From Actinomycetota bacterium (GTDB taxonomy: Bacteria > Actinomycetota > UBA4738 > HRBIN12), in contig DATKDI010000024.1 of NCBI GenBank assembly GCA_035512775.1, positions 18,077 through 82,076 of the forward strand: a stretch of DNA of 64,000 bases, written 5' to 3'. The notes beneath the pieces were generated by a model. The model made no database searches. It was not told the DNA's origin and saw only the letters and a list, made by a program, of their open reading frames with translations. Below are positions 1,695-49,988 of the stretch, piece after piece (the first letter of the stretch is position 1; each line of letters begins with the position of its first letter). The translations under genes and the position numbers were made by a program.

Positions 1695-1885
1695 TACTCA
1701 TACTCCTTCCGAAACCGATTCATGAACCAGATGTTATACTGGTGGGCTCATTTTGTCCATACCGAACTCGGCTCAGTTTCCTGGCTCAGAAATAGCTCCA
1801 CTGCAAGCGATACCCCACGCCGGACCGGTCCACCCCGTCGGCGGCCAAGCTGACGGATGTCTCTGTCGGCTCCTAGGGTCGAGGG

Positions 1886-2611: not shown

Positions 2612-3352
2612 TCAGGGCGTGTCCGCTCCGGTCGGCTCGGAGCTCCAGCGTCCCTGGAGCCAGCGGCGCTCGTGAGGGCTGCTCATCGGACGCAGAGGGA
2701 AAAGGCTCGGCATGACACGGGGAAGGACACGCTGGATCGAGTTCGCCGCCTGCAGCAGCTGCAACATCTCCACCCCTGGGAGCTCCGGGGCCCACAGGAG
2801 GAGGACCTCGTCGTTCACGTCCGCGACGACGTCGTGCGGGAGTCGAAGGAACCCCTCCATCACGCGTTGATCGAGGAGCGCCGAAGCCGCGCGGGCGTCC
2901 TCGGCCTCCACGCGGAACCGCCGGTTGAACTCCTCGAGCTCGAGGGTGACGAGCGGGAGCCCGATCGCGTCGGCGATCTCGTGCACGAGGTCCCGAGAAG
3001 CGACGCGAAGCCGTGGGGAGGAGAACGGGAGTGGCACCGCTGCGCAGGTGATGGTCCGCCGGAGGCCGGGTCCGCCGTCCTCGCTCTTCTCCCGATACCA
3101 GAAGTCGAAGGCGCGAACGCCACCATCGCGTCGCGGATCCCAGACCACGTTGGAGGTTCCGCTCGGCGTCCGCCCGAACATCTCGAAGGGGAGAAATCCG
3201 GTTCCGGGGAACGTGTCCAGTGGGGCGAACCCGAGACCGGCCACCTCGCAGAGCAGCATCAGCTTCCGCTGCCGGTCGTGACGGCGCCGTACCCGGTACC
3301 AGGCCCAGGCGGCCACCGCCACCAGCACCACCGCCGTCAGCGTCCACCGCAT
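2612..3352 (-). CDS. Membrane-anchored hypothetical protein.
   Basis: 246-aa ORF with an N-terminal hydrophobic helix (LTAVVLVAVAAWAWY). No catalytic motif was recognised. Confidence 0.5.
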   Translation of the reverse strand: MRWTLTAVVLVAVAAWAWYRVRRRHDRQRKLMLLCEVAGLGFAPLDTFPGTGFLPFEMFGRTPSGTSNVVWDPRRDGGVRAFDFWYREKSEDGGPGLRRTITCAAVPLPFSSPRLRVASRDLVHEIADAIGLPLVTLELEEFNRRFRVEAEDARAASALLDQRVMEGFLRLPHDVVADVNDEVLLLWAPELPGVEMLQLLQAANSIQRVLPRVMPSLFPLRPMSSPHERRWLQGRWSSEPTGADTP

Positions 3353-3406
3353 GACTCAGACGTCGGGAGGGCAGGTTCGCACCTTGAATCGCCTAGGGTC
3401 GGCCAC

Positions 3407-3908
3407 ATGACCACGATCCGACCGGCATACAGCACGTGGCCCCTGTACAACTCACGCTTCCGCGACGCCATCCGCGGGATGACGGAGGAGCAGCTCGCGA
3501 TCCAGCCGACACCGGAGCGATGGCCGCTCTGGGCGAGCGTCGGCCACATGGCCTGTCAGCGCGTGTTCTGGCTCTGTGACTTCGCCGGCGAACCCGGCGC
3601 CGAGACGACGCCGTTCACGAACGCCGGATACGACTGTCCCGGCGACGACGACCTCGAACACGTACTCAGCGGCGGAAGCGCTGGCCGAGGCACTCGACTC
3701 GACGTTCCGCATCATCGAGGGCTTCCTCGACCGATGGACGATCGACGACCTCGAGGAGGAGCTTCGTCGCCCCGAGTGGGAAGGCTCCTGGGTCCACACC
3801 CGCGGCTGGGTGATCCAGCGGGTCTTCACCCATGACGTCTGGCACGCGGCCGAGATGAACGAGTCCCTCGGGAACGCCGGGCTGCCGCAGATCGATCTCT
3901 GGGCCTGA
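3407..3908 (+). pseudogene. DinB-family (DinB_2/YfiT-like) protein, copy 1, carrying a +1 frameshift.
   Basis: The N-terminal part (MTTIRPAYSTWPLYNSRFRDAIRGMTEEQLAIQPTPERWPLWASVGHMACQRVFWL..DDDLEHVLSG) is in frame 2. The C-terminal part (AEALAEALDSTFRIIEGFLDRWTIDDLEE..HDVWHAAEMNESLG) is in frame 3. The two parts are joined if one G is removed from agcggcGGaagcg near 3668. A paralogous copy lies at 16728-17250. Confidence 0.65.
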
Positions 3909-3928
3909 GGAGGGGGGAAGGAGCGATA

Positions 3929-4804
3929 GTGTTCGAGATCATCGAAGTACCGTCGGGGCTGGGATTGCTTCCCCAGGGCGTTGACCAGGCGCCTGCTGCG
4001 CTCCGGCACGCCGGGCTCCCGAGCAGGCTCGGAGCCACAGCTGTCCACACGGTGACGTGCCCCGATCCCGACCCCGCCATCGATGAGGAGACCGGACTCA
4101 TGAACGTGTCCGGCCTCGTCGACGTGGCCACGCGGCAGGCGGAGGCGATCGAGGAGGTGCTGGATCGTGGTGCGACTCCGTTCGTCGTCGGCGGGGATTG
4201 CAGCATCCTGCTCGGTTCGATGCTCGCGCTCCGTCGTCGCGGACGTCACGGCCTGCTCCACGTCGACGGTCATGCGGACTTCTGCCATCCGAGTCAGGAT
4301 CCGCTCGGCGAGGCTGCGTCCCTCGACCTCGCCCTGGTGACCGGCCGCGGCCCCAAGGTCGTCACCGACCTGGAGGGCCGGGGTTCGCTCCTGCGCGATG
4401 AGGATGCCGTCCAGCTCGGCTACCGCGCGAAAACCCTCGATCGATTCCTCGATGAGCACATCCGGGACACGGCGATCACCGTCCTCGATCTCGACGACAT
4501 CCGTCAGCGCGGGATCGAGGCGTGTACGCAGCAGGCGCTCGCCGTGGCCGCTCGCCCGGAGCTCGATGGCATGTGGCTGCACCTCGACGTCGATGCGCTC
4601 GACGACGCCCTCATGCCCGCGGTCGACTACCACGACGCGGATGGCCTGAGCTGGCAAGAGGTCGAGCACGTCCTCAGAGCCGCCAGCGGCACGGACCGCC
4701 TCGTCGGGGCGCAGATCGCCATCTACAACCCGACCCTCGACGGCGACGGCGCGCCCCTCGCGGCACGGATCGTCGACCTCCTGGCGGCCGCGTTCATGTC
4801 ATGA
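3929..4804 (+). CDS. Arginase/agmatinase/formiminoglutamase-family ureohydrolase.
   Basis: Arginase-family metal-binding motifs GGDCSI, HVDGHADF and DVDALD, with an overall length of 291 aa. Confidence 0.75.
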   Translation: MFEIIEVPSGLGLLPQGVDQAPAALRHAGLPSRLGATAVHTVTCPDPDPAIDEETGLMNVSGLVDVATRQAEAIEEVLDRGATPFVVGGDCSILLGSMLALRRRGRHGLLHVDGHADFCHPSQDPLGEAASLDLALVTGRGPKVVTDLEGRGSLLRDEDAVQLGYRAKTLDRFLDEHIRDTAITVLDLDDIRQRGIEACTQQALAVAARPELDGMWLHLDVDALDDALMPAVDYHDADGLSWQEVEHVLRAASGTDRLVGAQIAIYNPTLDGDGAPLAARIVDLLAAAFMS

Positions 4805-5082
4805 CCGGGCGATCTCGTCGCCGCTGGCCCCGGCGTCTGGCGGCAGCCGTCGGCGTCGTGGTTCTCCTTCTGGCCGCGGTCTACGCGTGGGCGTTGACAT
4901 CCGTGGACTCGTCCACGGATGCGCGGGCGATGGTCTGGAGGGACGCCGACGTCGGCGACCAGCATCGGTTCCCGTCTCGCGTCATCCCGGCCGGCACCGC
5001 GGCCTCCAGGTGCCGAAGCGCGTCCACGGTCGAGCGCATCTGCCGATCGCACCAGTCGCCCCCACAACGAAGACCTTCATGA
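4801..5082 (+). CDS. Small membrane-anchored hypothetical protein (94 aa), possibly a truncated N-terminal fragment.
   Basis: The ATG at 4801 overlaps the arginase stop (ATGA). Arg-rich N-terminus followed by a TM helix (LAAAVGVVVLLLAAVYAWAL). The rest of the long frame looks non-coding. Confidence 0.3.
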   Translation: MTGRSRRRWPRRLAAAVGVVVLLLAAVYAWALTSVDSSTDARAMVWRDADVGDQHRFPSRVIPAGTAASRCRSASTVERICRSHQSPPQRRPS

Positions 5083-5205
5083 CGACCTCCTCTGAGATGG
5101 TTCTCGTCTTCTCACCCCCGAGACGCCTGAGGAGGCCGGGCTGTGACAGTTCGCCCCCAGCGGTACGGTGGGTGGAGGTCTCCGGGCGGAAGAGAAGGAG
5201 CCACG

Positions 5206-5928
5206 ATGGGTGCCGATGATCGACAGGTAGTCGAGGACCTCGTTGCGGCAGATCCGCGGAAGGGCTCGGCCGACAGCCGCTCGTTCGCGATGGGCGATCC
5301 CGAGGAGACCACCACCTGGGAGCGAGCCAGAGAGCGCGGCATCACGGACGAGCAGTGGGCCCGCTTCGAGGATGCCGTGGCGGAGATGTTCGGCGCGTTC
5401 GGGATGGACCTCGGCACGGAAGGCACCGAAGCCACACCTCGTCGGTTCGTCCGCGCGCTCTTCGAGGCAACGGCCGGCTACGAAGGAGATCCGAAACTGT
5501 TGACTGCCTTCCCCACGGAATGCCGCGGCGGGCCGGATTGCTCGATCAGCCAGGTGATCGAAGGACCGATCCCGTTCTTCTCTCTGTGCGAGCACCACGC
5601 GTTCCCGTTCTACGGCGTCGCGCACGTCGGCTACGTCGCCCACGAGCAGATCATCGGCATCTCCAAGATGACCCGGCTGGTTCGCGTGTACGCGCGGCGC
5701 TTCACGGTGCAGGAGCGAGTCGGCCAGCAGATCGCCGACCACCTGAACGAGATGATGCAGCCGCACGGCGTCGCGGTGCATCTCCAGGCAGCTCACCTGT
5801 GTACCCAGATGCGCGGGGTGCGCGAGGAGCGTTCCCGGACCTCGACATCGTTCTGGCGAGGGAACTACGAGCGCGACCCGGAGATGCGTCGAGAGTTCCT
5901 GACGGTCGCGCAGCGATCGCTTGAGTGA
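5206..5928 (+). CDS. folE: GTP cyclohydrolase I.
   Basis: Conserved FolE motifs CEHHAFPFYGVAHVGY and IGISKMTRLV. Start is the internal Met MGADDRQ; the upstream in-frame extension is unlikely to be translated. Confidence 0.85.
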   Translation: MGADDRQVVEDLVAADPRKGSADSRSFAMGDPEETTTWERARERGITDEQWARFEDAVAEMFGAFGMDLGTEGTEATPRRFVRALFEATAGYEGDPKLLTAFPTECRGGPDCSISQVIEGPIPFFSLCEHHAFPFYGVAHVGYVAHEQIIGISKMTRLVRVYARRFTVQERVGQQIADHLNEMMQPHGVAVHLQAAHLCTQMRGVREERSRTSTSFWRGNYERDPEMRREFLTVAQRSLE

Positions 5929-6770
5929 CCTCGGCGCACGCCTCGAAGTGCTGTACGAGGAAGCGCCCTCTTCTGACGGGCTCTCTCTGCCGTCCGAGCT
6001 GGAGGTCGCTTACGGCGGCCCGTTCGCACTCGCGGACCAGATCGTCTACGGGAACTTCGTAGAGTCGATCGACGGGGTCGCCGCGATCCCGGGCGTGAAG
6101 GAGTCCTCTGCCGTGATCAGTGGAGGAGCGCCGGCCGACCGGCTCGTGATGGCGCTCCTTCGCGCGGTGGCCGACGCCATCGTGATCGGGGTCGGGGACG
6201 TTCGCGGAACACGGTGGTCCCTGGACAGCGGAGCGGGCGTACCCGCCCACCGCCGACCTGATCCCCCGCGCACGAGAGATGGTCTCGGCGAACGGGACGG
6301 CGCCCACCCTCGTCGTGGTCACGGCGAGCGGCGGACTTCCAGCGGATCATCCGGCTCTCGCGTCGGCGCTCATCGCCACGACCTCGGCCGGGGCTCAAGC
6401 GATCGCCGAGAAGGAAGTGGCGTGCGCCGGCGTGATCGATGTCGGCGCGTCGGACGACGTGGATCCGGCGACGGTGATCGAGCGCCTGCGCGAGCGCGGG
6501 TATCGACGCATCCTCACCGAAGGGGGGCCCTCGCTGATGGGGTCGATGCTCGAGGCATCCGTCGTCGACGAGCTCTTCGTGACGATCTCGCCGAAGCTCC
6601 TCGGCGGAGGAGAAGATCGCCCTCCACTGACCGGTGAGGCCGATCTCCTCGGGAAGGCTCCCGATCCACGTCTCGTGAGCGTCCGCCGGGCGGATGATCT
6701 CCTCTTCCTGCGATACCGGCTCGGCGCGAAACGGTCTGACGCGCTGCTTGTCACGGATGAGGGGCGTTAG
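5921..6770 (+). pseudogene. RibD C-terminal-domain / dihydrofolate-reductase-like reductase carrying a +1 frameshift (G3 to G4 at about 6194-6197).
   Basis: N-terminal part in frame 2 (..SSAVISGGAPADRLVMALLRAVADAIVIG). C-terminal part in frame 0 (GTFAEHGGPWTAERAYPPTADLIP..ILTEGGPSLMGSMLEA..LFLRYRL). Deleting one G from gtcGGGGacg restores a roughly 278-aa protein. Confidence 0.6.
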
Positions 6771-6796
6771 AGGGACCCTGAACTCTTGGCGACCCG

Positions 6797-6847
6797 CCTT
6801 ATCTATGGAAGACTGCTGGATAAGGAAAAGGCAGTTCCCTTATCTAA
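6797..6847. promoter_or_regulatory. AT-rich palindromic operator-like site upstream of the Fic gene. CCTTATC-N15-GATAAGG, with an extra direct copy of CCTTATCTA at 6839-6847.
   Basis: Read directly from the sequence. It lies in a local low-GC island in a roughly 70% GC background, followed by a GGAGG RBS before ATG 6877. Confidence 0.45.
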
Positions 6848-6876
6848 GAGCGCCCGGAGGAAAAGGGAGGAAAAGG

Positions 6877-8031
6877 ATGACGAGCACCAGGGCCGGTCGG
6901 TACGTCCGGCAGCCGGGGGGATATCAGGCTTTCATCCCCTCGCCTCTTCCTCCGCCCGCTATGACGACCGACCCCCGGCTCCTGTCCTTGCTGTCGACGG
7001 CCGACTTGGCCCTGGGGCGGCTCGACGGGGCGACGAAACTACTCCCCGACCCCGACTTCTTCGTGCTCATGTACGTCCGCCGCGAGGCTGTCGTGTCCAG
7101 CCAGATCGAGGGCACGCAGGCATCGCTGATGGACGTCCTCGAGTTCGAGGCGGAGATGGATCAGGCCGAACGTCGAGTGGACGTCGTCGAGATCGCGAAC
7201 TACGTCACGGCGATGAACCACGGGCTGGCGAAGCTCCCCCAGTTGCCGATCTCGCGACGCCTGCTGTGCGAAGTGCACGCCGTCCTGATGACGGACGTCC
7301 GCGGCGGCGAACCGCAGAAGACACCCGGGCAGTTCCGGAAGTCCCAGAACTGGATCGGGGGGGCGTCGCCGGCTACGGCGCGCTTCGTGCCGCCTCCTTG
7401 GGAAGAGGTGGGGCCGGCCTTCGCCGACCTCGAGCGGTTCCTCCATGACACTGAGCCGATGCCAGCCCTCATCAAGATCGGCCTGGCGCATGCGCAGTTC
7501 GAGACCATCCACCCGTTCCTCGACGGGAACGGGAGGATCGGCCGGCTACTGATCAGCTTCTGGCTCGTCGAGCAGGAGATCATCCAGCGCCCGATCCTGT
7601 ATCCCTCGCTCTTCTTCAAGGAGCACCGGGAGGACTACATCGACCGCCTCCAGGCGATCCGTGACGACGGTGCCTGGGAGGACTGGTTGGCATTCTTCGT
7701 CGATGGGATCGGTCAGGTGGCGGAGGAGGCCACCGGGCGCGCCTACGAGATCGTTCATCTGCGCGAGGACCATCAGCGGCTCGTCGCCGAGAAGCTCGGC
7801 AAACGGGCGCCGAATGCGCTCGCCCTGCTCGGGCATCTGTTCCGTCAGCCGGTCGTGAGCGCCAAGCTCGTGGAGTCGATGGTGGACGTATCCCAACCGA
7901 CGGCGTCAGCGCTGGTGCGAGATCTCGAGGAGATCGGGATCCTTCGAGAACGAACGGGGAAGCGGCGGAACCGGCTCTTCGCCTACCAGCCCTACCTCGA
8001 CCTGTTCCCGGGCGCGACGTCGAGGAGCTGA
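6877..8031 (+). CDS. Fic-family protein (AMPylase/Fido domain) with an N-terminal inhibitory helix (class II) and a C-terminal winged-helix-like domain.
   Basis: Fic motif HPFLDGNGRIGR (HxFx[D/E]GNGRxxR). Inhibitory motif SSQIEG ([S/T]xxxE[G/N]). 384 aa. RBS GGAGGAAAAGG before the ATG. Confidence 0.85.
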   Translation: MTSTRAGRYVRQPGGYQAFIPSPLPPPAMTTDPRLLSLLSTADLALGRLDGATKLLPDPDFFVLMYVRREAVVSSQIEGTQASLMDVLEFEAEMDQAERRVDVVEIANYVTAMNHGLAKLPQLPISRRLLCEVHAVLMTDVRGGEPQKTPGQFRKSQNWIGGASPATARFVPPPWEEVGPAFADLERFLHDTEPMPALIKIGLAHAQFETIHPFLDGNGRIGRLLISFWLVEQEIIQRPILYPSLFFKEHREDYIDRLQAIRDDGAWEDWLAFFVDGIGQVAEEATGRAYEIVHLREDHQRLVAEKLGKRAPNALALLGHLFRQPVVSAKLVESMVDVSQPTASALVRDLEEIGILRERTGKRRNRLFAYQPYLDLFPGATSRS

Positions 8032-8090
8032 TCCGAGCCCGAGTCACCGGCTCCGCAGTTGGCGATCCGACGTCCTGCGAGCCTCTCTCG

Positions 8091-9302
8091 CTAACCGACA
8101 AGCAGAGCGCGCGCCTCGTAAGCCTCGATCGGCGAGCTCATCCCCTTCAACCTGACCTCGCCGATGCTCTTGAATCGGAGGTCCTCGCGCTCGCCCGTCA
8201 GCCGGACGACCTCGGCGTCCACCAGCGTCTGGCCGGGGTCCGCCGCCCCGGCGAGACGTGAGGCGAGGTTCACCGTCCGACCGTAGTAGTCGCCGTCCTG
8301 GAAGATCACCGGACCCGCGGCGACACCGGCGTGGGCGGGCGGCAGGCCGACGTCGGCGGTGCGGCGACCGACTTCGATCGTCGCGAGGACGGCCGCGGCG
8401 GGATCGCGGAACGAGAACATCACGCCGTCGCCGAGCCACTTCACCGCCCTGCCGTCGCGGCGCCCGACCTCCTCGTGGACCAGCAGCGCGAGGCGGGCGC
8501 CCAGCTCCGCCGCCGCCTCGTCGCCTCGTTCCTCCGTCAGGCGCGTGTAGCCGGTGAGGTCGAGGAACGCGAACGCGGTCGGCCGCTCGGTGCGTTCGTA
8601 CAGCCCCATCGCTTCGATCGCGCTCTCCATGTGCTGGACGCCGTCGTCGGTCCAGACACGCTCCTGCTGGCGCCGGAAGATCGCCATCACGAGCTCCTCC
8701 CTCTGCAGGTCGAGCTCGGCGCCGATCTCGTTCACGATGCCCAACATCTCGCCGTGACTGCGGCCGGCGTCGAGGAGCGGCATCTCGATGTGTCGATGGA
8801 AGACATCCGCGTCCGTCTCGACGACCCGGCTGAGCGCTTCGGTGAAGACCCGAACGAGCCGCAGCTCCACGTCGGCGCCGACCCCTGCGGCGATCGCCCG
8901 GCGTGGCGCCTCGAGCATCCCCGGGAGGTCCGCCGGCGCGGGATCATCCGGCCCGGGCCGGACCTTCCCCAGGGCCTCCTCGAACGCGAGGACGAACTCG
9001 ATCGGCAGGTCCATCTCGTCCGCCACCTGCCGGTACGTCCGCGCGGACAGCGGCGCCCAGCGGTACTGCGGTTCGTCCAGGAACGCGAAGGAGAAGCGGC
9101 CCTCCTGGATCGAGCGCGCGATCGCGTCGATCGACAGTCCCCCTCGATCGGATGCCCGGACGAACCGCACGCGGTACACGTCCGATCGGAAGAACGCGCC
9201 GTCGTCGCCGGAGCGCAGGATCCCCAACTCGACGAGCCGGGCCACGTAGGACTCGTCGACGCCTGCCTGCTCGGCGAGCTCCTTCGGGTCGCGGGCGGTC
9301 AT
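8091..9302 (-). CDS. Adenylate/guanylate cyclase (class III CHD) protein with an N-terminal HTH-like region.
   Basis: C-terminal cyclase motifs FLDLTGYTRLTEERGDE, KWLGDGVMFSF and YGRTVNLASRLAG. The N-terminus LAEQAGVDESYVARLVELGIL is HTH-like. Confidence 0.75.
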   Translation of the reverse strand: MTARDPKELAEQAGVDESYVARLVELGILRSGDDGAFFRSDVYRVRFVRASDRGGLSIDAIARSIQEGRFSFAFLDEPQYRWAPLSARTYRQVADEMDLPIEFVLAFEEALGKVRPGPDDPAPADLPGMLEAPRRAIAAGVGADVELRLVRVFTEALSRVVETDADVFHRHIEMPLLDAGRSHGEMLGIVNEIGAELDLQREELVMAIFRRQQERVWTDDGVQHMESAIEAMGLYERTERPTAFAFLDLTGYTRLTEERGDEAAAELGARLALLVHEEVGRRDGRAVKWLGDGVMFSFRDPAAAVLATIEVGRRTADVGLPPAHAGVAAGPVIFQDGDYYGRTVNLASRLAGAADPGQTLVDAEVVRLTGEREDLRFKSIGEVRLKGMSSPIEAYEARALLVG

Positions 9303-9379
9303 CGAGGCCGGATGATAGGCCGCACGCGGCCGACGGATGTCCCGACGCACCTCGGGGGTCGGGTGAGAGCCCGGACGAT

Positions 9380-10153
9380 CTACTTCGGGACCGAGGGCGA
9401 CGGCGTCAGCCGCGACATCGTCGCCGGCTCGACGTACGCGATCTCGGCGCCGGGCGAGCGATCGAGGACCGCCTTGGCCCGGGCGTACATCTCGTCCTGC
9501 CGGCGCACGAGCGTCTCCTCCTTCTCCTCGGGATCGTAGGCGCCGGCCACCGCCCAGTGATCCCTGAGCTCCTTCACCGATGAGGCGTGGGTGCGCAGCT
9601 CGAGCCTGCGACGCTCGTCGATCGCGAACACCCCTCGCCCGACGACCGTCGCGACCGCTGCCTCCGCATGCCGGAGGTCGTCCTCGTAGTCGAACCCGGG
9701 ATCGTCCTCCGAGAAGAGCAGCTCCCCGTTCGACCTGATCTCGACGGATGGGACCTCGAGGGCGGGATGGACCTCGATCAGCGATCCGGCTGGCCTTAGC
9801 AACCGGTGGATCTCCTCAAGGGCATGGACCATGCCCTCGTGCTCCATTCAGCAGAGCGACCAGGACAGCAGCGCCACGTCGAAGACGTCGGCGTCGCTGG
9901 CGGCGGCGAATCCCTCGAAGGTGATGTTGCGGAACTCGATCCGCTCGTTCGGCGCTTCCGAGAGCCGCTTCTGCGCCCTCGCGATCGAGTCCGCGAAGGG
10001 CTCGATCGCCGTCACGTGGGCGGCTCGGTCCGCGTAGCGCCACGTGAGGCGGCCGTCGCCGCACCCGATCTCCAGGACCTCGCGTCCCTCCAGCTCGACG
10101 AGTTCGAACAGCGCGTCGGTCTCGTTGCCTTCGGGATCGGTCCGGATGGTCAA
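9380..10153 (-). pseudogene. Class I SAM-dependent methyltransferase interrupted by an in-frame TGA.
   Basis: Motif I LEIGCGDGRLT. The reading frame is ...ALLSWSLC-TGA-MEHEGMVHALEEIHRLLRPAGSL, i.e. post-motif II continuity across a TGA at 9845-9847 (plus-strand tca). Possibly a TGG to TGA change, or a consensus error. Confidence 0.55.
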
Positions 10154-10231
10154 GGCACGACCCTACCGCCCTGAGCTCCGCCCTGGGTTCACCGGTCCGC
10201 GACGACCTCCAGGCGTAGAGTCCAGCCGAGG

Positions 10232-11521
10232 ATGGACGCGGCGAAGTCACGCACAGGAGCGTTCCGGCGGCTCATCGAGATCGGCTCTCAGCCCGAGGAC
10301 GACGAGGCCGAATCGCTTCGGAAGCGGGTTCTTGTCCTCGCGGCGAGCATCATCACCGGGCTCGCGACGGTCTGGGTCGTCAGCTACGCACTGATGGGGC
10401 TATACGTATCGGCGCTGATCCCGTTCACGTACCAGGTCGCCTCCGTCGCGAACCTCGCGGTCTTCGCCAGGACGAAGCGATACCGCCTGTTCAGGTTCAG
10501 CGAGCTCGCCCTCAGCCTGATGTTGCCGTTCCTGCTGCAGCTCAGCCTCGGCGGCTTCTTCCCGTCCAGCGCGGTCGTCCTGTGGTCGTTCACGGCGCCG
10601 CTCGGCGCGCTCCTGTTCGCGGGTCGACGTTCCGCCGCCCGGTGGTTCCTGGCCTTCCTCGGCGTGGTCGCGGCTGCGGCGCTGCTCGATCCGATCGTCC
10701 CCGACCGGACCGCGATGATCCCCGACTGGGTGATCGTCCTGTTCTTCGCCAACAACATCCTGGGAGTGACGGGAACGAGCTACCTGCTGCTCTCGTACTT
10801 CGTCCGCGAGCGCGATCGTGCCGCCGAGACCCTCGCTGCCGAGCGGGAGCGGTCCGAGCGACTGTTGTTGAACGTGTTGCCGGAGCCGATCGCGGCACGG
10901 CTCAAGAGCGGAGAGCCGCTGATCGCCGACGGTATCCCCGAGGTAGGAGTCCTGTTCGCGGACATCGCCGGCTTCACGCCGATGGCGGAACGGATCACGC
11001 CCCACGAGGTGGTCCGGCTGCTCGACCGGATCTTCAGCCGGTTCGACGCTCTCGCGCTCGAGCACGGCCTGGAGAAGATCAAGACGATCGGCGACGCGTA
11101 CATGGTGGCGTCGGGATTGCTCGAACCACGGCGGGACCACGCGGAGGATCTCGCTCGCATGGCGCTGGCGATGCAGGACGAGGTCCGGCGGTTCGACGCG
11201 CTCGAGCTCCGGATCGGCATCGACATCGGGCCGGTCGTCGCGGGCGTGATCGGCCAGCGGAAGTTCAGCTACGACCTGTGGGGCGACACCGTGAACACGG
11301 CGAGCCGGATGGAGTCGCACGGCGTCATCGGGGGCATCCACGTCACCGAGCGCGCCCGGAGGCGGCTCGCCGACGCGTTCGACTTCGAGAGCCGCGGCGT
11401 GATCGACGTCAAGAGCAAGGGACCGATGACGACGTACCTCCTCGTCGGAGCGCGGCCGTCCGGTGACGAGGCGCGCTCGTCCGTCTCGACAGGCGAGCGC
11501 CACCCGGGAACGACCGACTGA
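10232..11521 (+). CDS. Membrane-anchored class III adenylate/guanylate cyclase.
   Basis: About six N-terminal TM helices followed by a CHD domain (VLFADIAGFTPMAE, KTIGDAYMVASGL, WGDTVNTASRMES). Confidence 0.8.
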   Translation: MDAAKSRTGAFRRLIEIGSQPEDDEAESLRKRVLVLAASIITGLATVWVVSYALMGLYVSALIPFTYQVASVANLAVFARTKRYRLFRFSELALSLMLPFLLQLSLGGFFPSSAVVLWSFTAPLGALLFAGRRSAARWFLAFLGVVAAAALLDPIVPDRTAMIPDWVIVLFFANNILGVTGTSYLLLSYFVRERDRAAETLAAERERSERLLLNVLPEPIAARLKSGEPLIADGIPEVGVLFADIAGFTPMAERITPHEVVRLLDRIFSRFDALALEHGLEKIKTIGDAYMVASGLLEPRRDHAEDLARMALAMQDEVRRFDALELRIGIDIGPVVAGVIGQRKFSYDLWGDTVNTASRMESHGVIGGIHVTERARRRLADAFDFESRGVIDVKSKGPMTTYLLVGARPSGDEARSSVSTGERHPGTTD

Positions 11522-11582
11522 GGCGAGATGACCACCTCGGAGCTCGAGCGAACTGCGACCCGGGCTGACCTAGACTCGCCCC

Positions 11583-14500
11583 ATGGCGGTGTGTACCTCC
11601 TGCGGAACCGTCAATGCGTCGGATGCGAGCTACTGCTCGAAGTGCGGCTCGGCGCTCGAGCCGCCCACATCCCCGGCAGAGGAGGTCCGCAAGACCGTCA
11701 CCGTCCTGTTCTGCGACGTCACCGGGTCGACGGAGCTCGGTGAGCAGCTCGACCCGGAGTCGATGCGGAAGGTCATGGGGCGCTACTTCGACGGCATGCG
11801 GGCCGAGATCGAGCGCCACGGTGGCACGGTCGAGAAGTTCATCGGGGACGCGGTGGTGGCCGTGTTCGGGATCCCCACGCTCCACGAGGACGACGCCCTG
11901 CGCGCAGTTCGAGCGGCAGGAGCCATGCGCATCGCGCTCAGAGAGCTCAACAAGGAGCTCGAGCGCGACTTCGGCGTGCGCCTCGCGGCCCGCATCGGGG
12001 TCAACACCGGCGAGGTCCTCGTCGGACCGGAGTCGGCCGAGTTCGGCCGCGTGACCGGGGACCCGGTCAACACCGCGGCTCGGCTCGAAGCCGCGGCGCA
12101 GCCGAACGAGATCCTCATCGGTGGCGACACGTACCGGCTCGTCCGCGAGGTCGTGGAGGCCGAGCCCCTCCAGCCGCTCTCCCTGAAGGGCAAGGCCGAG
12201 CCGGTCCCCGCCTACCGGTTGCTCGGCGCTCCGGTCGGGACCGCGCCGCCGCCACGAGCGTTCACATCCCCGATGGTGGGACGTGAGCGTGAGCTCGACG
12301 ACCTCCTCCGGGCGTTCGAGCGCGCGGTGCAGGATCGCACGGCCCTGCTGTTCACCCTGCTGGGGTCGGCCGGAGCGGGGAAGTCGAGGCTGGCCGAAGA
12401 GTTCCTGGAGCGGGTCGGCGGATCGGCCGAGGTCGTCGTCGGTAAGTGCCTGCCGTATGGCGAAGGGATCACCTACTGGCCGGTGGCGCAGGCCCTCCGG
12501 ACGGTGCTCGACGTCCACGACTTCGACGAGCCGGAGGAGGTCCTGGCTCGTCTGGGGCGCATCCTCGAGGGACACGAGCACGCGAACGCCGTGTCGGCGC
12601 GCATCGCCGAGCTCCTCGGGATCGCCGAAGGCCACGCTTCACCGGAAGAGATCGCGTGGGCCATCCGTCGGTTCCTGGAGATCCTCGCGACCGACCGGGC
12701 GGTGATCGCGGTGTGGGAGGACATCCACTGGGCCGAGCCGGCGTTCCTCGATGCGATCGACCACGTCGCGGACTGGGCCCACGACGCGCCGATCATGCTG
12801 CTGTGCACCGCCCGGCCCGAGTTCATCGACGGGCGGCCCTCATGGGGCGCCGGGAAGCTGAGGGCATCGGCCCTGTCGCTGCCGCCCCTCGACACGGGAA
12901 CGTCCGCGGAGCTGATCACGAACCTCCTCGGCGGCGCTCGGCTGCCACCTGACGCGACCGATCGTGTCATGGAGGCTGGCGGCGGCAATCCGCTCTTCGT
13001 CGAGCAGATGGTCTCGATGCTGATCGACGACGGCCTCGTCGTCCGGAACAACGGCGGATGGAGACCCACCGGCGACCTGTCGACGGTCGCCGTCCCGCCG
13101 ACGGTCGCGGCCCTGCTGGCCGCCCGGCTGGACCGGCTCACGGGAGAGGAGCGGCAGGCGATCGGAGCCGCCTCGGTGATCGGCAAGGTGTTCTATCTCG
13201 GCGCCGTTCGCGACCTCCTCCCCGAGTCGCTTGGCGAGCAGGCCCGACCGCTCGTCCTCTCGCTGGTGCGGAAGGAGCTCGTCCGGGAAACGCGCTCGAC
13301 GATCCCCGGCGAAGACGCCTTCGAGTTCCGACACATCCTGATCCGCGACGCCGCCTACGCCGCGATCCCCAAGGAGCGGCGCGCCGACCAGCACCGCGGG
13401 TTCGCCGAGTGGGGGCTGCGCATCGCCGGCGAGCGGGTCGAGGAGCAGGAGGAGATCGTCGGCTACCACCTCGAGCAGGCCTTCCGGTACCGCGAGGCGT
13501 TGGGGCCGCTCGACGACGACGCCCGGAGCCTCGCGAAGGAGGCGTCGGCCACGCTCGAGGACGCGGGGATGCGCGCGTTCGATCGGCCAGACATGTTCGC
13601 TGCGGCGAACCTCCTCGGCAGGGCGGAGGCACTCCTCGAGCCGGACGATGCCCGGCGGGTCGGGCTCCTGCCTTCGCTCGCGTACGCCCTCTTCGAGACG
13701 GGCCGGCTCGACGAGATACGCGACATGATCGACGAGGCGGAGGCGCGAGCGGGATCGCTCGGCGATCCGACGGCACTCGCGCATGCGTCGATCGCTCGCT
13801 GGTCGCTGGTGGAGGGACCGGCACACCGCCACTCGGCGAGGGAGGACGCGACCGCGGCGGTCCGCGTGTTCGAGTCGGCACGCGACGAGCGCGGGCTCGC
13901 CCGAGCGTGGAACCTGATCGCGAGGATCGAATGGGACCTGGGCCAGGGGGGGCCCCAGCTGCAAGCTATCTCGCGGGCGCTACAGCACGCGCGACGCGCG
14001 TTGGCCGGCTACGAGGAACACGAGGCGCTGCTGGAATTCACGGCGGCGCTCGTCCGCGGGCCGACGCCCGTGTCTGAGGGCATCGCGCGGGCGGAGGCGA
14101 CGATCGAGGAGTACGCGTCCAGCCGCGAGGTGGAGGCGATCATGTGCCACGGGCTGGCTCACCTGCGGGCGCGACTCGGCGGCTTCGACGCGGCGCGCGA
14201 GGCGATCGACCGGTACCGGTCGTACCTGTCCGACACCGGGCAGACCGTCAGTCATCTGCGGTCCGTGGAGGTCGTGTTCGACATCGAGATGCTCGCGGGC
14301 GAGGCCGAGCGCGCGTGCGATGCACTCGAGCGGGCATGGGAGTCGATGGCCGCGATCGGCGATCGATGGCCTTACCTCTCGGCGTTCCTGGGGCAGGGAC
14401 GCTACGCGGTCGGTCGGTACTCGGAGGCCCGGGACGCCGCGGCCTTCGCCGCCGAACACGGCGACGCGATCGAGGGGTCGTTGGGTCTCGGCGTGATGGC

Positions 14501-14750
14501 GAAGGTCGCCGCGAGGGATCGGGACGCCGAGCGAGCCGAGGCGACGATCCGTGAGGCGGTCGAACGCGTGGACCGGACCGACTTCCTGTTCGATCGAGGA
14601 ACGGTCCATGCGGACCGAGGCGAGACGATGCGACTCCTCGGACGCGAGGACGAGGCGGCCCTCGCGTTCGACGAGGCGACCAGGCTCTTCGATCTGAAGG
14701 GTGACCGCGTCTCGGCCGACCGGATCCGCGCCCTTCGCGACGGACGCTAG
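11583..14750 (+). CDS. Large signal-transduction STAND protein: Zn-ribbon, adenylate/guanylate cyclase domain, AAA/NB-ARC-type ATPase and TPR-like repeats.
   Basis: CxxC..CxxC at the N-terminus. CHD motifs VTVLFCDVTGST and KFIGDAVVAVFG. Walker A GSAGAGKS. A long helical repeat C-terminus. 1055 aa. It is a paralogue of 56295-59099. Confidence 0.8.
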   Translation: MAVCTSCGTVNASDASYCSKCGSALEPPTSPAEEVRKTVTVLFCDVTGSTELGEQLDPESMRKVMGRYFDGMRAEIERHGGTVEKFIGDAVVAVFGIPTLHEDDALRAVRAAGAMRIALRELNKELERDFGVRLAARIGVNTGEVLVGPESAEFGRVTGDPVNTAARLEAAAQPNEILIGGDTYRLVREVVEAEPLQPLSLKGKAEPVPAYRLLGAPVGTAPPPRAFTSPMVGRERELDDLLRAFERAVQDRTALLFTLLGSAGAGKSRLAEEFLERVGGSAEVVVGKCLPYGEGITYWPVAQALRTVLDVHDFDEPEEVLARLGRILEGHEHANAVSARIAELLGIAEGHASPEEIAWAIRRFLEILATDRAVIAVWEDIHWAEPAFLDAIDHVADWAHDAPIMLLCTARPEFIDGRPSWGAGKLRASALSLPPLDTGTSAELITNLLGGARLPPDATDRVMEAGGGNPLFVEQMVSMLIDDGLVVRNNGGWRPTGDLSTVAVPPTVAALLAARLDRLTGEERQAIGAASVIGKVFYLGAVRDLLPESLGEQARPLVLSLVRKELVRETRSTIPGEDAFEFRHILIRDAAYAAIPKERRADQHRGFAEWGLRIAGERVEEQEEIVGYHLEQAFRYREALGPLDDDARSLAKEASATLEDAGMRAFDRPDMFAAANLLGRAEALLEPDDARRVGLLPSLAYALFETGRLDEIRDMIDEAEARAGSLGDPTALAHASIARWSLVEGPAHRHSAREDATAAVRVFESARDERGLARAWNLIARIEWDLGQGGPQLQAISRALQHARRALAGYEEHEALLEFTAALVRGPTPVSEGIARAEATIEEYASSREVEAIMCHGLAHLRARLGGFDAAREAIDRYRSYLSDTGQTVSHLRSVEVVFDIEMLAGEAERACDALERAWESMAAIGDRWPYLSAFLGQGRYAVGRYSEARDAAAFAAEHGDAIEGSLGLGVMAKVAARDRDAERAEATIREAVERVDRTDFLFDRGTVHADRGETMRLLGREDEAALAFDEATRLFDLKGDRVSADRIRALRDGR

Positions 14751-14946
14751 ACGAGGAGGGGCCTGGCCACCCGGGTCGATGCTCAAGCCGATCCGCCCGG
14801 TCCTCAGCACACTGCTCGACACGAGAGGGTCGTCCCGCTCGAGTCGAGCCTCCCGCACCTGTCCTCGACCGTAGCGCGGGATGGATATCCACTGGTCGGG
14901 GGATGGCACGGGTCGCAGAACCCGGTACGGTCGGCCACCGGGACGG

Positions 14947-15504
14947 ATGCCGATCGGAGACGACTTCCCGCAGGTCCTTGCCGCCGCCCGGCTGGGAGCC
15001 GAGTGGGCGTGGACCGCGCTGTACCGGGACCTGGTGCCGTCGGTCCGCGGCTACCTCCGAGCGCGCGGAGCGATCGAGCCGGACGATCTGCTCGGCGAAG
15101 TCTTCCTCCAGCTCGTCCGCGACCTCGGCAGGTTCGAGGGCGACGAGCGGGATTTCCGCACGTGGGTGTTCACGGTCGTCCATCACCGCCTGATCGACGA
15201 CCGCCGGCGGCGGAGCCGCCGGCCGGTCGAGGCCTCACCGGACGAGGTGCTCGAGGCGTTCGGAGAGCTCGGCGACGTCGAGGATGAGGCGATCGCCGGC
15301 CTCACGGCCGCTCGTGTTCGGCAGCTCGTCGGCAGGCTATCCCCCGAGCAACAGGACGTGCTTCTCCTGCGCCTGTTCGGCGACCTGGCGACCGAAGAGG
15401 TCGCCTCGATCGTGGGCAAGCGCCCAGGGGCCGTGAAGGCGCTCCTTCGACGAGGCCTCGCCTCGCTCAGGAGGGAGATGTCCAGGGAGGGCGTATCCAT
15501 CTGA
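14947..15504 (+). CDS. ECF (sigma-70 family) RNA polymerase sigma factor.
   Basis: Region-2-like LGEVFLQLVRDLGRFEGDERDFRTWVFTVVHHRLID and region-4 HTH VLLLRLFGDLATEEVASIVGKRPGAVKALLRRG. The stop overlaps the next ATG (ATGA at 15501-15506). Confidence 0.8.
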   Translation: MPIGDDFPQVLAAARLGAEWAWTALYRDLVPSVRGYLRARGAIEPDDLLGEVFLQLVRDLGRFEGDERDFRTWVFTVVHHRLIDDRRRRSRRPVEASPDEVLEAFGELGDVEDEAIAGLTAARVRQLVGRLSPEQQDVLLLRLFGDLATEEVASIVGKRPGAVKALLRRGLASLRREMSREGVSI

Positions 15505-16403
15505 TGCAGCCGGACGCTTACCAAGACGATATGGCCCGCTTCCTTCGCATGAGTGACGAGGACGTCCAGCGTCTCTTCCGCGGACTCCCCCCGGGGCGCG
15601 ATGAGGACCTGCGTGACCTCGCCGACTTCCTGGCGGATGCCACCCAGGCCCTCTCGCGCCCGCCGCGGAACGATGTGGAAGCCGGGCACCTAGCGCTCAT
15701 CGCGGAGGCCGTCCGGCCTCCATCCGACGAGGCCCTGGCACCGACCCCCGCCGCGACCAGCGCGGGGACGCCGATGGCCCGGTCCACCGAGAGGAGAGGC
15801 CCCATGCGTCTACGCACCGTCCGTTGGGCAGTCAAGGTCGCCGTCGCCACCGCATCCGTCGTGTTGATGACGGCGACGCTCGCGTTCGCCGGCGTGGATC
15901 TGCCCGGCACCGCAGCCGAGACCGCCTTCCTGAAGGTCTTCGGGGTCGACCTTCCGAATCAGGCCGACGAGCATGCCGGCGCCGTTCCGGAGGAGCTGCC
16001 GGAAGCCGCCGCCGACACAGCGCTGGCCGTCCTGGCCGTGATCAGAGAGTGGCGCTCCGGCTTGGAGTGGAGTGGATGTGAGTTCGGTGCGCGTGTCTCG
16101 GCGGCGGCTCGGGGGCTCGAGGGTGAACCCGACACGTCCCACTGCGCCGGTTCTGACGGGGGTGGCTCGGATGCTGCCGGTGGCTCGGAGAACGCCTCGC
16201 ACGCCGACGAGGGCCTCGAGACGGCCGACGAAGCATCCGGCGGCGCGGCGTCCGGCGGCGCGAGCAACGCCGACGACGGCCTCGGGACCGCGGACGGGGC
16301 GTCGGATGGCGCCGGGTCTGACGGATTGAGCAACGCCGACGACGGCCTCGGAACCGCGGACGGGGCGTCGGATGGCGCCACCGGCGGAGTGGGCGGCCCT
16401 TAA
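15504..16403 (+). CDS. Putative anti-sigma factor: membrane protein with a C-terminal acidic Gly/Asp/Ala-rich tandem-repeat region.
   Basis: Translationally coupled to the ECF sigma gene. One TM segment (AVKVAVATASVVLMTATLAFAGV). The C-terminus contains three copies of a 22-aa repeat (SNADDGLGTADGASDGAGSDGL). Confidence 0.6.
   Translation: MQPDAYQDDMARFLRMSDEDVQRLFRGLPPGRDEDLRDLADFLADATQALSRPPRNDVEAGHLALIAEAVRPPSDEALAPTPAATSAGTPMARSTERRGPMRLRTVRWAVKVAVATASVVLMTATLAFAGVDLPGTAAETAFLKVFGVDLPNQADEHAGAVPEELPEAAADTALAVLAVIREWRSGLEWSGCEFGARVSAAARGLEGEPDTSHCAGSDGGGSDAAGGSENASHADEGLETADEASGGAASGGASNADDGLGTADGASDGAGSDGLSNADDGLGTADGASDGATGGVGGP
16196..16393 (+). repeat. 66-bp tandem repeat, two near-identical units plus one diverged unit, inside the anti-sigma gene.
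   Basis: Units at 16262-16327 and 16328-16393 (gagcaacgccgacgacggcctcgg[g/a]accgcggacggggcgtcggatggcgcc...). A diverged unit lies at 16196-16261. Confidence 0.8.
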
Positions 16404-16439
16404 GGGTTCCTCGGTTCCTCCTATCCGAGCGCGTCGTTA

Positions 16440-16682
16440 GGGGCACCTGAGCTACGTCTGGCGCGATCTGCTCCAGGAGGCGCCGGATCCTGGCGTCGAG
16501 CTCGTCGCGGATCGGCCGTACCTGCTCGAGCGTCTTCCCGGCGGGATCTTCGAGCTCCCGGTCCTCGTACCGCTTCCCCGGGTAGATCGGGCACGCGTGC
16601 CCGCTCCCCATCGTGATCACGACGTCGGACGCCCGAACGGATCCGTCCGTGAGCAGCTTCGCGGCTCCAGCGTGCCGGGAAA
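16440..16682 (-). pseudogene. arsC: Arsenate reductase (LMW-PTP/ArsC family), C-terminal fragment only.
   Basis: LLTDGSVRASDVVITMGSGHACPIYPGKRYEDRELEDPAGKTLEQVRPIRDELDARIRRLLEQI matches the C-terminal half of thioredoxin-type ArsC. The frame is closed by a TAG immediately upstream (16683-16685), abutting DinB-repeat copy 2. The listed ORF's extension down to 16042 is an artefact. Confidence 0.6.
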
Positions 16683-16742
16683 GCTATCGGCCGGCGCCTC
16701 CGAGGCCTGACGGACGTCACGACCCGCGCCTAGGGTCGGGGC

Positions 16743-17257
16743 GTGGCGACGATCCGACCCCCGTACAGCACGTGGCCCCTGTACAACTCGCGCTTCCGCG
16801 ACGCCGTCCGCGGGATGACCGAGGAGCAGCTCGCGATCCAGCCGACGCCGGAGCGATGGCCGCTCTGGGCGAGCGTCGGCCACATGGCCTGTCAGCGCGT
16901 GTTCTGGCTCTCTGTGACTTCGCCGGCGAACCCGGCGCCGAGACGACGCCGTTCACGAACGCCGGATACGACTGTCCCCGGGACGACGACCCTCGAACAC
17001 GTGCTCAGCGGCGAAGCGCTGGCCGAGGCACTCGACTAGACGTTCCGCATCATCGAGGGCTTCTTGACCGATGGACGATCGACGACCTCGAGGAAGAGCT
17101 GCGCCGCCCCGAGTGGGACGGCTCCTGGAACCACACCCGCGGCTGGGTGATCCAGCGGGTCTTCACCCATGACATCTGGCACGCGGCCGAGATGAACGAG
17201 TCCCTCGGGCACGACGGCCTGCCGCAGATCGACCTCTGGTCGTCGCCTAGATCGTGA
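16743..17257 (+). pseudogene. DinB-family protein, copy 2, with multiple lesions.
   Basis: About 94% DNA identity to 3407-3908. Relative to copy 1 it carries +ct (ctggctctCTgtgac), +c in ccccgggacgacgaccctcg, an in-frame TAG (cactcgacTAGacg) and -c (ggcttcttgacc). Confidence 0.7.
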
Positions 17258-18220
17258 TGACGATCTTGCCGGCGGCGTGTCCTTCCTCGAGGTACCGGAT
17301 CGCGTCCGGGGCCTCGATCAGCGGGTAGGTGCGGTCGATCACCGGGATGAGCGTGCCGGCGTCGATCAGCTCCGCGAGGGTGACGAGGTCCTCGTGCTTG
17401 ACCTTCGAGGCCAGCCCGCGGAGCTTCTGACCCACGAGCAGGGACACCAGCGGCGCTCGCAGCACGCCGCGGAAGAAGCCACCGGTCCAGCGTCCACCTC
17501 CGTCGCCACCCACGATCACGAGGGTTCCCTTCGCGGTGAGTGCGCGGCGCAGCTCCGACAGCGGACGACGGCCGGCGGTGTCGACGATCACGTCCCAGCG
17601 TCGCGCGCCGTTCGCGAAGTCCTCGCGCGTGTAGTCGATCACGTCGTCTGCCCCGATCGAGCGGATCAGGTCCATCTTCGAGGTGCTGCCGACGCCGGTG
17701 ACGGCCGCGCCGTACGACTTGGCGATCTGCACCAGGAGTGAGCCCACCCCCCGGCCGCACCGACGACCAGGACGTTCTGCCCCGGCTGCACCTTCCCGAT
17801 GTCACGTACAGCTCGCAGGGCGGTGGTACCGGAGATCGGCACCGCGGCCGCCTGCTCGAAGGTGAGGTTCGCGGGCTTGAGGACCAACTTGTCCGGGCGG
17901 GCGATCACGTGCTCGGCGAAGGAGCCGCCTTCGGAGGCGCCCATCACCTCGTCGCCGGGCCGGAGGCCGGTCACGTTCGCGCCGACCGCTTCGACGGTTC
18001 CCGCGACGTCCCAGCCCCGGACGTTGAGCTTCGGTCGGCGGAGGCCGATCGCGGGGCGCGCCATGTACGGCATGCCGGTCATCAGGTGCCACACGTCGGG
18101 GCCGCAGCCCGCCGCGTGCACCCGGACGAGCACGTCGCCCTCGCCGACCTTTGGCTCGTCGATGTCTCGGAACTCCAAGACGTCTGCCGAGCCGTATCGA
18201 TCCTGCACGATGGCCTTCAT
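17247..18220 (-). pseudogene. Zinc-type alcohol dehydrogenase/quinone-oxidoreductase (MDR family) with a -1 frameshift in a G-homopolymer.
   Basis: N-terminal part MKAIVQDRYGSADVLEF...VLVVGAAGG. C-terminal part in another frame (VGSLLVQIAKSYGAAVTGV...). The run G7 has become G6 at about 17745-17750 (plus-strand cccccc). An intact paralogue lies at 20280-21332. Confidence 0.6.
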
Positions 18221-18253
18221 CCGGATCCCCTCCCTTGCCCAGGATGTTCCTGT

Positions 18254-18302
18254 GTGTACGCCGTACACTTCGGGGGGTGGAGACTACGTGTACGGCGTAC
18301 AC
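18254..18302. promoter_or_regulatory. Two 15-bp palindromic TetR-type operator candidates (GTGTACGCCGTACAC at 18254-18268, GTGTACGGCGTACAC at 18288-18302) in the divergent intergenic region.
   Basis: The two sites are exact reverse complements of each other and each is near-palindromic. They lie between the divergently transcribed ADH pseudogene and the TetR gene. Confidence 0.5.
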
Positions 18303-18339
18303 TTGTCAACCGGGGGAGAGGCTGCGGAGGTGTGACGGT

Positions 18340-19023: not shown

Positions 19024-19166
19024 TCCCCGGCGGCAGGACTACGGAGAGCTCACCGGGAGGGTGTCGCTGGCTGGAGTACGAGCGGTACCAGACGAGGACC
19101 ACTCGCGAGATCCCCGCGGTCATCCTCGAGCGGCTCGAGGACGCCGCCTCGAAGTAGCATCGCGAC

Positions 19167-19637: not shown

Positions 19638-19655
19638 CGGGACATCCCTCCTTCT

Positions 19656-20207: not shown

Positions 20208-20279
20208 CGGTGATCAGAGGACAGGCTCCATCTGTTCCTGCCGCCTCCATCCCTACACTTCCTCCGCCACCCCCGATGC

Positions 20280-49870: not shown

Positions 49871-49988
49871 GGCGCCAGTTTGCCACCGACAACTTTTCTT
49901 GTCAAGATATGAGTCGTCAGCGAGAGGCTCGATCGATAGGCCCACCAGCCGCGCGAGATGTCAGGCAACCTATAGAAGGAGCGCTCCG

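Follow-up and report, generated by a model that had tools for sequence, protein, structure and literature searches.

Two copies of a DinB_2-family gene on either side of a 12.8-kb accessory block in an Actinomycetota contig: probable sister paralogues, one of them decayed

How do two nearly identical copies of one small gene come to lie 13.3 kb apart in a bacterial genome, each broken in a different way, and did the arrival of the second copy destroy the arsenate reductase gene whose remains lie beside it? The question is raised by a stretch of 64,000 nucleotides, here called the window, from an Actinomycetota bacterium (assembly GCA_035512775.1, contig DATKDI010000024.1, positions 18,077 to 82,076 of the forward strand), in which a segment of a DinB-superfamily gene is found at 3391-3905 (copy 1) and again at 16728-17241 (copy 2). 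The reading that we favour is that the copies are probably sister paralogues placed around an accessory block by recombination at the DinB gene, the downstream one having since decayed.

The repeat pair was recovered directly by a repeat search of the window, the GC content of which is 67.8%. Global alignment of the two segments gave 482 identical columns out of 518 (93.1%, or 94.3% over ungapped columns), which bears out the figure of about 94% given by a first-pass annotation of this DNA; the differences comprise 29 mismatches and 7 gap columns in five indel events, and the longest identical runs are 69, 60, 43 and 35 nt. Each repeat spans from a 13-nt promoter-like motif, CGCCTAGGGTCGG, to the last codons of the gene, the right end of identity being ...CTCTGG, 1-2 codons 5' of the stop, and three-frame translation resolves it into a 166-codon gene. 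The annotation had put the shared upstream stretch at 15 bp; the identity is present, but the exact match is the 13-mer. When the copies were aligned together with their flanks, as had been proposed, the repeat and the lesions were both confirmed and the flanks proved unrelated, the repeat being confined to the motif and the coding sequence. The repeated unit would then be one putative promoter plus one coding sequence.

Profile scores were taken on conceptual translations from which the indels had been removed. The repaired copies match Pfam DinB_2 (PF12867) over profile positions 7-128 of 128, with 53.1 bits for copy 1 and 52.8 bits for copy 2 against a cut-off of 24.8, and the original assignment of both segments to a DinB-superfamily gene is therefore upheld. 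A database search returned 3,074 homologues with a typical length of 168 aa, the best of them intact, 173 aa long and 95% identical; their hosts are soil Actinomycetota, Chloroflexota and other metagenome-assembled genomes (MAGs), and the sources annotate the relatives as 'DinB family protein'. Residues H47, H142, D143 and H146 (His142-Asp143-x-x-His146) are invariant in 13 sequences, including both repaired copies; the conserved His and His-Asp-x-x-His residues are metal ligands in the superfamily. Both repaired copies fell under the cut-off of the Pfam DinB family profile and under that of the mycothiol S-transferase profile PF04978 (22.9 and 24.7 bits, cut-off 27). A curated model for this DinB clade was not found in NCBIfam, and a search of PDB sequences gave no significant match, the best being B. 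subtilis YizA (E = 0.31). The likeness to the DinB_2 family consists in the end-to-end profile match and the full-length alignment with homologues of 166-173 aa, whereas the difference is that neither copy in the window is an uninterrupted open reading frame, copy 1 having one frameshift and copy 2 three, together with a nonsense codon and a lost stop. An intact but distant DinB-family gene, not a close paralogue, is present at 37141-37812 on the minus strand (Pfam PF05163, E = 7e-10), where it adjoins pentose-phosphate genes.

The lesions were reported to differ between the copies, and they do: one extra base in copy 1 as opposed to +CT, +C, TAG and -C in copy 2. Inspection of the orthologous loci in more than ten relatives showed that all five of these indel and nonsense lesions are unique to the window. 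Copy 2 (16743-17239, plus strand) begins with GTG at 16743, a feature beyond those first listed, and is frameshifted by +CT in CTCTCT (16908-16913), by +C in CCC (16990-16992) and by -C at 17063-17066. Its nonsense codon is a change of TCG to TAG at 17037-17039 (S98stop). Its own stop codon, in a further point not listed at first, has been lost: homology runs out at 17239, and 8 nt further on comes the stop of the convergent downstream gene (17247-17249). The first 98 codons are annotated by NCBI as 'DinB family protein' (HUF58402.1). With changes polarised by nine relatives, copy 2 carries about 9-10 private non-synonymous changes against 5 synonymous ones. The replacements include A7P, G79R, V129N, N156H and A157D; the residues hit by A7P, G79R, S98stop and V129N, the serine at codon 98 among them, are shared by 90% or more of the homologues aligned. 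Judged by these substitutions, copy 2 is a true pseudogene, even if its indels should prove to be wrong.

Copy 1 presents a different picture. It runs on the plus strand from the ATG at 3407 to the TGA that ends at 3908 and is colinear with the intact homologues of 166-173 aa except for a single break, an extra base within 3674-3677 that shifts the frame after codon 89. The base lies in GGCGGAAGC (cGGCGGAAGc, 3670-3679); at this site most of the more than ten intact relatives compared have GGCGAAGC, and one, L001, has GGCGGAGC. NCBI annotates only the 110-aa tail (3576-3908, HUF58389.1, hypothetical protein). By the same polarisation the private changes of copy 1 are 4 synonymous and 2 conservative non-synonymous (V>I, D>E), so that its substitutions look selected and the copy has been constrained until very recently. 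It is a serious possibility, though not the one towards which we lean, that the extra base is not fixed in the organism, and copy 1 is probably either functional or very recently hit. The claim that both copies are inactivated accordingly holds for copy 2, with its mostly non-synonymous changes at near-invariant residues, but is not established for copy 1 by a single extra base. The repaired protein of copy 1, in either its Glu or its Gly variant, was absent from a collection of 15 billion proteins searched by exact look-up.

Relatives for comparison were fetched by protein or DNA similarity. The two copies share derived bases lacking in nearly all of nine sampled relatives, two of these bases being absent from all nine, and, when compared with L010 and L001, they have a common mosaic pattern along the entire gene. 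As the mosaic is the same in both copies, it is older than the duplication. The copies are sisters that originated within this lineage, not alleles of different donors. A crossover inside one copy, as in a Campbell integration from a foreign donor allele, was considered and rejected on account of the common mosaic.

The gene order of the relatives points in the same direction. Their cluster holds a single DinB gene and consists of an alpha/beta-hydrolase, a methyltransferase (MT) or a gene here called X, DinB, a convergent zinc-type alcohol dehydrogenase/quinone oxidoreductase gene (ADH) and a TetR gene. In the window, copy 1 keeps the hydrolase flank and copy 2 the ADH-TetR flank. The left flank, hydrolase then DinB, is found in L001, L008, L009, L010 and L013, and the right flank, DinB then convergent ADH-TetR, in L002, L009 and L043, while hydrolase, DinB and ADH-TetR occur together in L016 and L017. 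The individual orders are hydrolase, MT, DinB and arginase in L001, which is 95.6% identical to window 3411-4993; hydrolase, X, DinB and GTP cyclohydrolase in L010; hydrolase, MT, DinB, ORF121 (an open reading frame) and convergent ADH in L002; hydrolase, DinB, 1.8 kb and ADH-TetR in L009; DinB, 0.14 kb and ADH in L043; and DinB, hydrolase and ADH-TetR in L016 and L017. Synteny breaks exactly at both DinB ends in nearly every relative, and the distance from DinB to ADH ranges from 0.14 kb to 13 kb. Gene X of the window (2612-3352, minus strand, HUF58388.1, hypothetical) occupies the site of a UbiE-type methyltransferase in L001, L002, L008 and L013 and is shared by L010.

A pair of copies with unrelated flanks might also have arisen if a hydrolase-linked and an ADH-linked DinB gene were ancient paralogues, the coding sequences of which had been kept similar by gene conversion. 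This would agree with the stopping of similarity at the gene edges, with each flank being individually ancestral and with a central 130 nt almost free of differences, as well as with the recurrence of DinB duplication in the clade: L008 (MAG CAWJFY010000011.1) carries a near-identical tandem duplication of a hydrolase-MT-DinB unit (8423-10490 and 12525-14599, period about 4.1 kb), in which the first DinB copy has lost its stop codon. This duplication is independent of that in the window. However, the relatives with 20 kb of context (L009, L010, L012, L013, L016 and L043) have DinB at one position only, and in L008, the exception, all three genes of the unit are repeated in tandem. In every homologue the gene is most strongly conserved in its central region, for which conversion need not be invoked, and the mosaic is common to both copies from end to end. 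We regard ancient paralogy with gene conversion as decidedly improbable.

According to the reading that we favour, the ancestral cluster would have been split in this lineage by a 12.8-kb accessory block (3909-16458), so that either side kept a DinB copy together with its promoter element. A cluster and a block with the target gene on both sides have the geometry expected from recombination at DinB, and from this we infer both a recombination route and an order of events; the repeat and its lesions, the kinship of the copies as sisters, the synteny and the relaxed selection on copy 2 stand as shown. The likeliest route would be recombination at or within DinB, either through a circular intermediate that carried DinB or through duplicative insertion, and not transposition. 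One copy would then have been redundant; copy 2 may have drifted neutrally, gathering three frameshifts, a nonsense codon, the loss of its stop and damaging replacements, while copy 1 would have stayed under purifying selection, its extra base being an assembly error, a minority variant or a very recent hit.

This arrangement resembles two known situations and differs from both. As in the decay of a redundant paralogue, there are sister copies, one constrained and the other decaying at a roughly neutral ratio; in contrast to the usual case, the unit is exactly one promoter and one coding sequence, the copies lie at a distance of 13.3 kb and not in tandem, and the retained copy carries a 1-nt insertion that is possibly spurious. 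As in a Campbell-type genomic island, 12.8 kb lie between direct repeats of about 0.5 kb at a synteny break of the relatives, with variable content next to DinB; the direct repeats bracket the block in the window, while L002, L009 and L043 have DinB 0.14-1.8 kb from ADH. Unlike such an island, the window lacks a plasmid gene, a tRNA target and any gene for an integrase, excisionase or transposase, and a circular form or donor of the block was not observed; the mechanism would be read from the geometry. Scanned with Pfam, the open reading frames between 3.9 and 16.4 kb and between 17 and 39.6 kb gave no integrase, recombinase or transposase, and the window contains no tRNA or tmRNA and no Rfam family. 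A mobile element as the origin of the 12.8-kb block, or of the 21.8-kb gap that separates the arsC and arsM genes described below, was rejected for want of an integrase, transposase or tRNA; the 21.8 kb moreover holds pentose-phosphate genes. A further and rather doubtful extension would be that DinB with its promoter motif serves as a portable homology anchor, through which accessory blocks lacking an integrase are exchanged among soil Actinomycetota genomes by homologous recombination. The 12.8-kb block would then be a cassette after insertion and the decayed copy its scar, a picture that fits the synteny breaks and the duplication in L008 but that we hold to be unlikely.

Several observations weigh against recombination at DinB followed by decay of one copy. 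Neither a circular intermediate nor a recombinase nor a diagnostic junction was found for the recombination route. In none of the relatives examined is there a counterpart of the left junction of copy 2, which consists of an arsC remnant and a spacer. The extra base of copy 1 and the four lesions of copy 2 are seen in the deposited contig only, because the contigs of an independent short-read assembly (Logan, SRR8556377, k=31; matching contigs L087, L088 and L091) break inside the repeat. A single-base insertion at 6188 in the same deposited assembly is contradicted by L087, and therefore not every indel of that assembly is trustworthy. Finally, it is possible that the contig is chimeric between co-occurring strains inside conserved DinB sequence.

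The independent contigs nevertheless reproduce much of the locus. L087 corresponds to window 3843-7501, including the junction between the 3' end of copy 1 and the arginase gene, and is identical over the other 3,658 bases but for position 6188, where the window has GGGG and L087 has GGG; it encodes an intact 282-aa RibD_C-like protein, the gene for which (5921-6770, plus strand) is frameshifted in the window by this one base. The extra G is either a mistake made in assembly or a variant that is segregating. L088 corresponds to window 17180-20459 and is 100% identical over 3,280 bp, including the junction between the 3' end of copy 2 and ADH, and L091 covers the inter-copy block at roughly 7.5-11.1 kb. 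Both copy-specific right junctions are reproduced in the independent assembly at 100% identity. The ADH gene (17247-18220, minus strand, convergent with copy 2) has a 1-nt deletion at about 17748, in a C-run within the GxGGxG region; as L088 has the deletion too, this frameshift beside copy 2 really exists in reads. A diverged but intact paralogue of ADH occupies 20280-21330.

The possibility that consensus errors, minority variants or a strain chimera inside DinB have produced the lesions, and that one or both genes are really intact, has to be set against these data. The case for it rests on the extra G at 6188, since L087 has an intact gene there and is otherwise identical over 3.66 kb; on the position of every single-base lesion in a short G/C run or CT repeat; on the resemblance of GGCGGAAGC in copy 1 to a blend of the relatives' alleles GGCGAAGC and GGCGGAGC; and on the conservation and abundance of DinB in soil metagenomes (3,074 hits), which make it a likely site of strain mixing. 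Indel errors, however, cannot create the nonsense codon and the non-conservative substitutions at near-invariant residues of copy 2, the ADH frameshift and both right-hand junctions recur at 100% identity in the independent assembly, and most of the window's genes are undamaged, open reading frames of 1,055, 1,166 and 1,027 codons among them. Moreover, 12.8 kb of unique sequence join the 3' end of one DinB copy to the 5' end of the other, and the two segments are therefore in one genome unless the block is itself chimeric. As the longest identical run is only 69 nt, the copies should be resolvable by large-k assembly. We thus consider an assembly artefact unlikely as an account of the pair. 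JGI metagenomes, scanned for exact matches to 51 nt of the derived sequence common to the copies, gave none, and no contig was obtained for the annotated fragments P0121 and P0122.

Pervasive frameshift noise of the long-read type was also suspected, the closest genomes being long-read soil MAGs, and was rejected: by exact protein look-up the contig, which is 100,960 bp long and of which the window covers 64 kb, belongs to an NCBI third-party MAG of an uncultured soil actinobacterium (HUF58388-HUF58402), and most genes in the window are intact. Adjacent frame switches examined beyond 20 kb proved to be separate genes, with the exception of an FAD-linked oxidase at about 49987-51375 (plus strand), where the frame changes at a 10-bp tandem duplication in which TCGCCCACGT occurs twice (about 50717-50736). 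A genuine inactivating mutation seems more likely here than an error of sequencing.

What drives the repeated unit, and whether the motif is part of it, may be asked of the 13-mer at its left edge. With one mismatch allowed, the motif CGCCTAGGGTCGG occurs just twice in the window, both times on the plus strand: at 3390-3402, on the left edge of copy 1, with TAGGGT 7 nt before the ATG at 3407, and at 16727-16739, on the left edge of copy 2, with TAGGGT 6 nt before the GTG at 16743. A shorter form, CCTAGGGTCG, is found at 1872-1885 (plus strand) upstream of the alpha/beta-hydrolase gene, with TAGGGT again 6 nt before the ATG at 1886. The pattern CCTAGGGTCG(G/A), followed by 6-7 nt and a start codon, thus occurs in the window at 1872-1885, 3392-3406 and 16729-16742. 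Among the relatives it precedes a hydrolase or DinB gene in L001, L008, L010, L011 and L013, and the hydrolase specifically in L001, L008 and L013. Actinobacterial promoters include a TANNNT type. From its recurrence, TAGGGT is possibly the putative -10 element of a leaderless promoter, or else a shared regulatory site; an E. coli-type promoter scan gave no match at either DinB copy.

The second part of the question concerns the arsC remnant upstream of copy 2. A C-terminal arsC fragment had been recognised there by the first-pass annotation, and this is confirmed: on the minus strand, 67 codons (16459-16659) are 88% identical to a 142-aa ArsC of the low-molecular-weight-phosphatase type, within a remnant that extends over 16459-16686 and has lost its stop. 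Compared with the final 67 residues of ArsC homologues of 134-156 aa, the remnant shows 84-88% identity (88% to P0126, the gene for which comes straight after arsR-arsM on its contig). The reported TAG is indeed in frame, at 16684-16686; the fragment, which was said to end at the repeat junction, lies 45-65 nt from the repeat. A spacer (16687-16726) separates the remnant from copy 2; clear arsC nucleotide homology ends at 16661, and arsC homology beyond this point into the spacer was discarded, as it consisted only of weak local alignments that are unconvincing in DNA of 68% GC. The remnant has replacements of its own, Cys>Ser and Trp>Arg at residues invariant in six of six aligned homologues and Asp>His at one conserved in five of six. 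It scores below the cut-off of PF01451 (21.7 bits against 23.2, profile positions 65-144) and far below that of NF010053 (25 bits against 215), and the N-terminal 70 or so residues, which contain the Cys-X5-Arg P-loop (VCVHNAGRS in homologues), have no counterpart anywhere in the window. The remnant therefore resembles the thioredoxin-coupled ArsC of arsR-arsM-arsC operons in its C-terminal 67 residues, with their 84-88% identity, but it lacks the P-loop half, a stop and an above-cut-off profile score, and is a fragment and not a functional member. Together with copy 2 and the frameshifted ADH gene it makes up a 1.9-kb run of dead genes.

The arsR-arsM pair was found where it had been placed, at 38478-39606 on the minus strand, arsM occupying 38478-39242 (297.6 bits against a cut-off of 263) and arsR 39220-39606. 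On the contigs of the two closest ArsC homologues (142 and 134 aa), arsC directly follows arsR-arsM, and in relatives L089 and L090 it comes immediately after arsM; no arsC follows arsM in the window, and no intact arsC is present in the window in spite of arsR-arsM. The distance from the remnant to arsR-arsM is 21.8 kb and crosses the housekeeping genes G6PD, 6PGD and 6PGL. Another relative, L092, is 92-96% identical over window 9.4-16.5 kb and has about 11 last codons of arsC after the anti-sigma gene, the stub running into part of a RibD_C-like gene, and no DinB lies in the vicinity.

It had been suggested that the duplication or insertion destroyed an arsenate reductase gene, a model in which a single duplicative insertion of DinB into an intact arsC created copy 2. 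The end of the remnant within 45-65 nt of the repeat edge would suit this model, as would the lack of an intact arsC in a window that has arsR-arsM, but the destruction is not shown. The model leaves the ancestral ADH-TetR right flank of copy 2 unexplained, the arsR-arsM genes lie 21.8 kb off across housekeeping genes and not across an insertion, L092 has lost nearly all of arsC at the same locus with no DinB, and the remnant is itself degenerate and set apart by the spacer. We consider the insertion into arsC very unlikely. Because arsC in L092 is cut differently at the same place and has no DinB beside it, loss of arsC at this site is recurrent and has proceeded in different ways, and it may predate copy 2 or be independent of it. 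The remnant would be a separate victim, probably an older one, of the rearrangements that tore the arsR-arsM-arsC operon apart.

The block between the copies contains genes for an arginase-family protein, GTP cyclohydrolase I, the RibD_C-like protein, a Fic protein, three adenylate-cyclase-domain proteins, a UGA-containing methyltransferase, an ECF sigma factor and an anti-sigma-like protein. The last of these, encoded by the open reading frame at 15549-16403 (plus strand) downstream of the ECF sigma gene, has three tandem 66-nt units (65-74% identical) at 16201-16398 that encode an Asp/Gly/Ala/Ser-rich C-terminal tail. The range of lengths among cluster relatives, from 199 to 343 aa, suggests that the number of units may vary. 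A second repeat pair in the window, at 25133-25574 and 28426-28866 (96-100% identical, 3.3 kb apart), covers paralogous genes for STAS-domain proteins (anti-sigma-factor antagonists) at 25125-25556 and 28421-28759, both on the minus strand.

The methyltransferase gene in the block (9380-10153, minus strand, S-adenosylmethionine-dependent) has an in-frame TGA at 9848-9850, in the context ...SWSLC-TGA-MEHEGMVHALEE..., and is annotated as two open reading frames, the C-terminal part being HUF VMR89_02775. The TGA is kept in L008, L012, L013 and L092-L097, and hundreds of database entries of about 150 aa, which start at an ATG just after it, imply it as well; the rare full-length homologues (P0250, P0294 and P0247) have Cys at this position. 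Beginning 4-11 nt beyond the TGA is a stable, conserved hairpin (consensus -21 kcal/mol), and third-codon variation across it is found at 1 of 14 positions as against 41% for the gene as a whole. Neither the curated NCBIfam methyltransferase-selenoprotein models nor, at the UGA, the Rfam SECIS models gave a match. A bacterial methyltransferase selenoprotein family has been mentioned (PMC2375036). On these comparisons, 9380-10153 is probably a Cys-Sec selenoprotein gene that has been annotated as two open reading frames.

The DinB copies themselves are ordinary paralogues within accessory DNA that is prone to recombination, a case of ordinary genome turnover that calls for no new mechanism, and the UGA-containing methyltransferase is probably more useful to follow. 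The locus also shows that an apparent double inactivation in a MAG can mix real decay, as in copy 2 and ADH, with indels that an independent assembly does not share, as at 6188; pseudogene calls in MAGs therefore need checks at the read level. For the organism and its relatives, the finding means that a small conserved gene lies at the border of accessory DNA prone to recombination, and that the ars operon has been dismantled in different ways among related soil actinobacteria.

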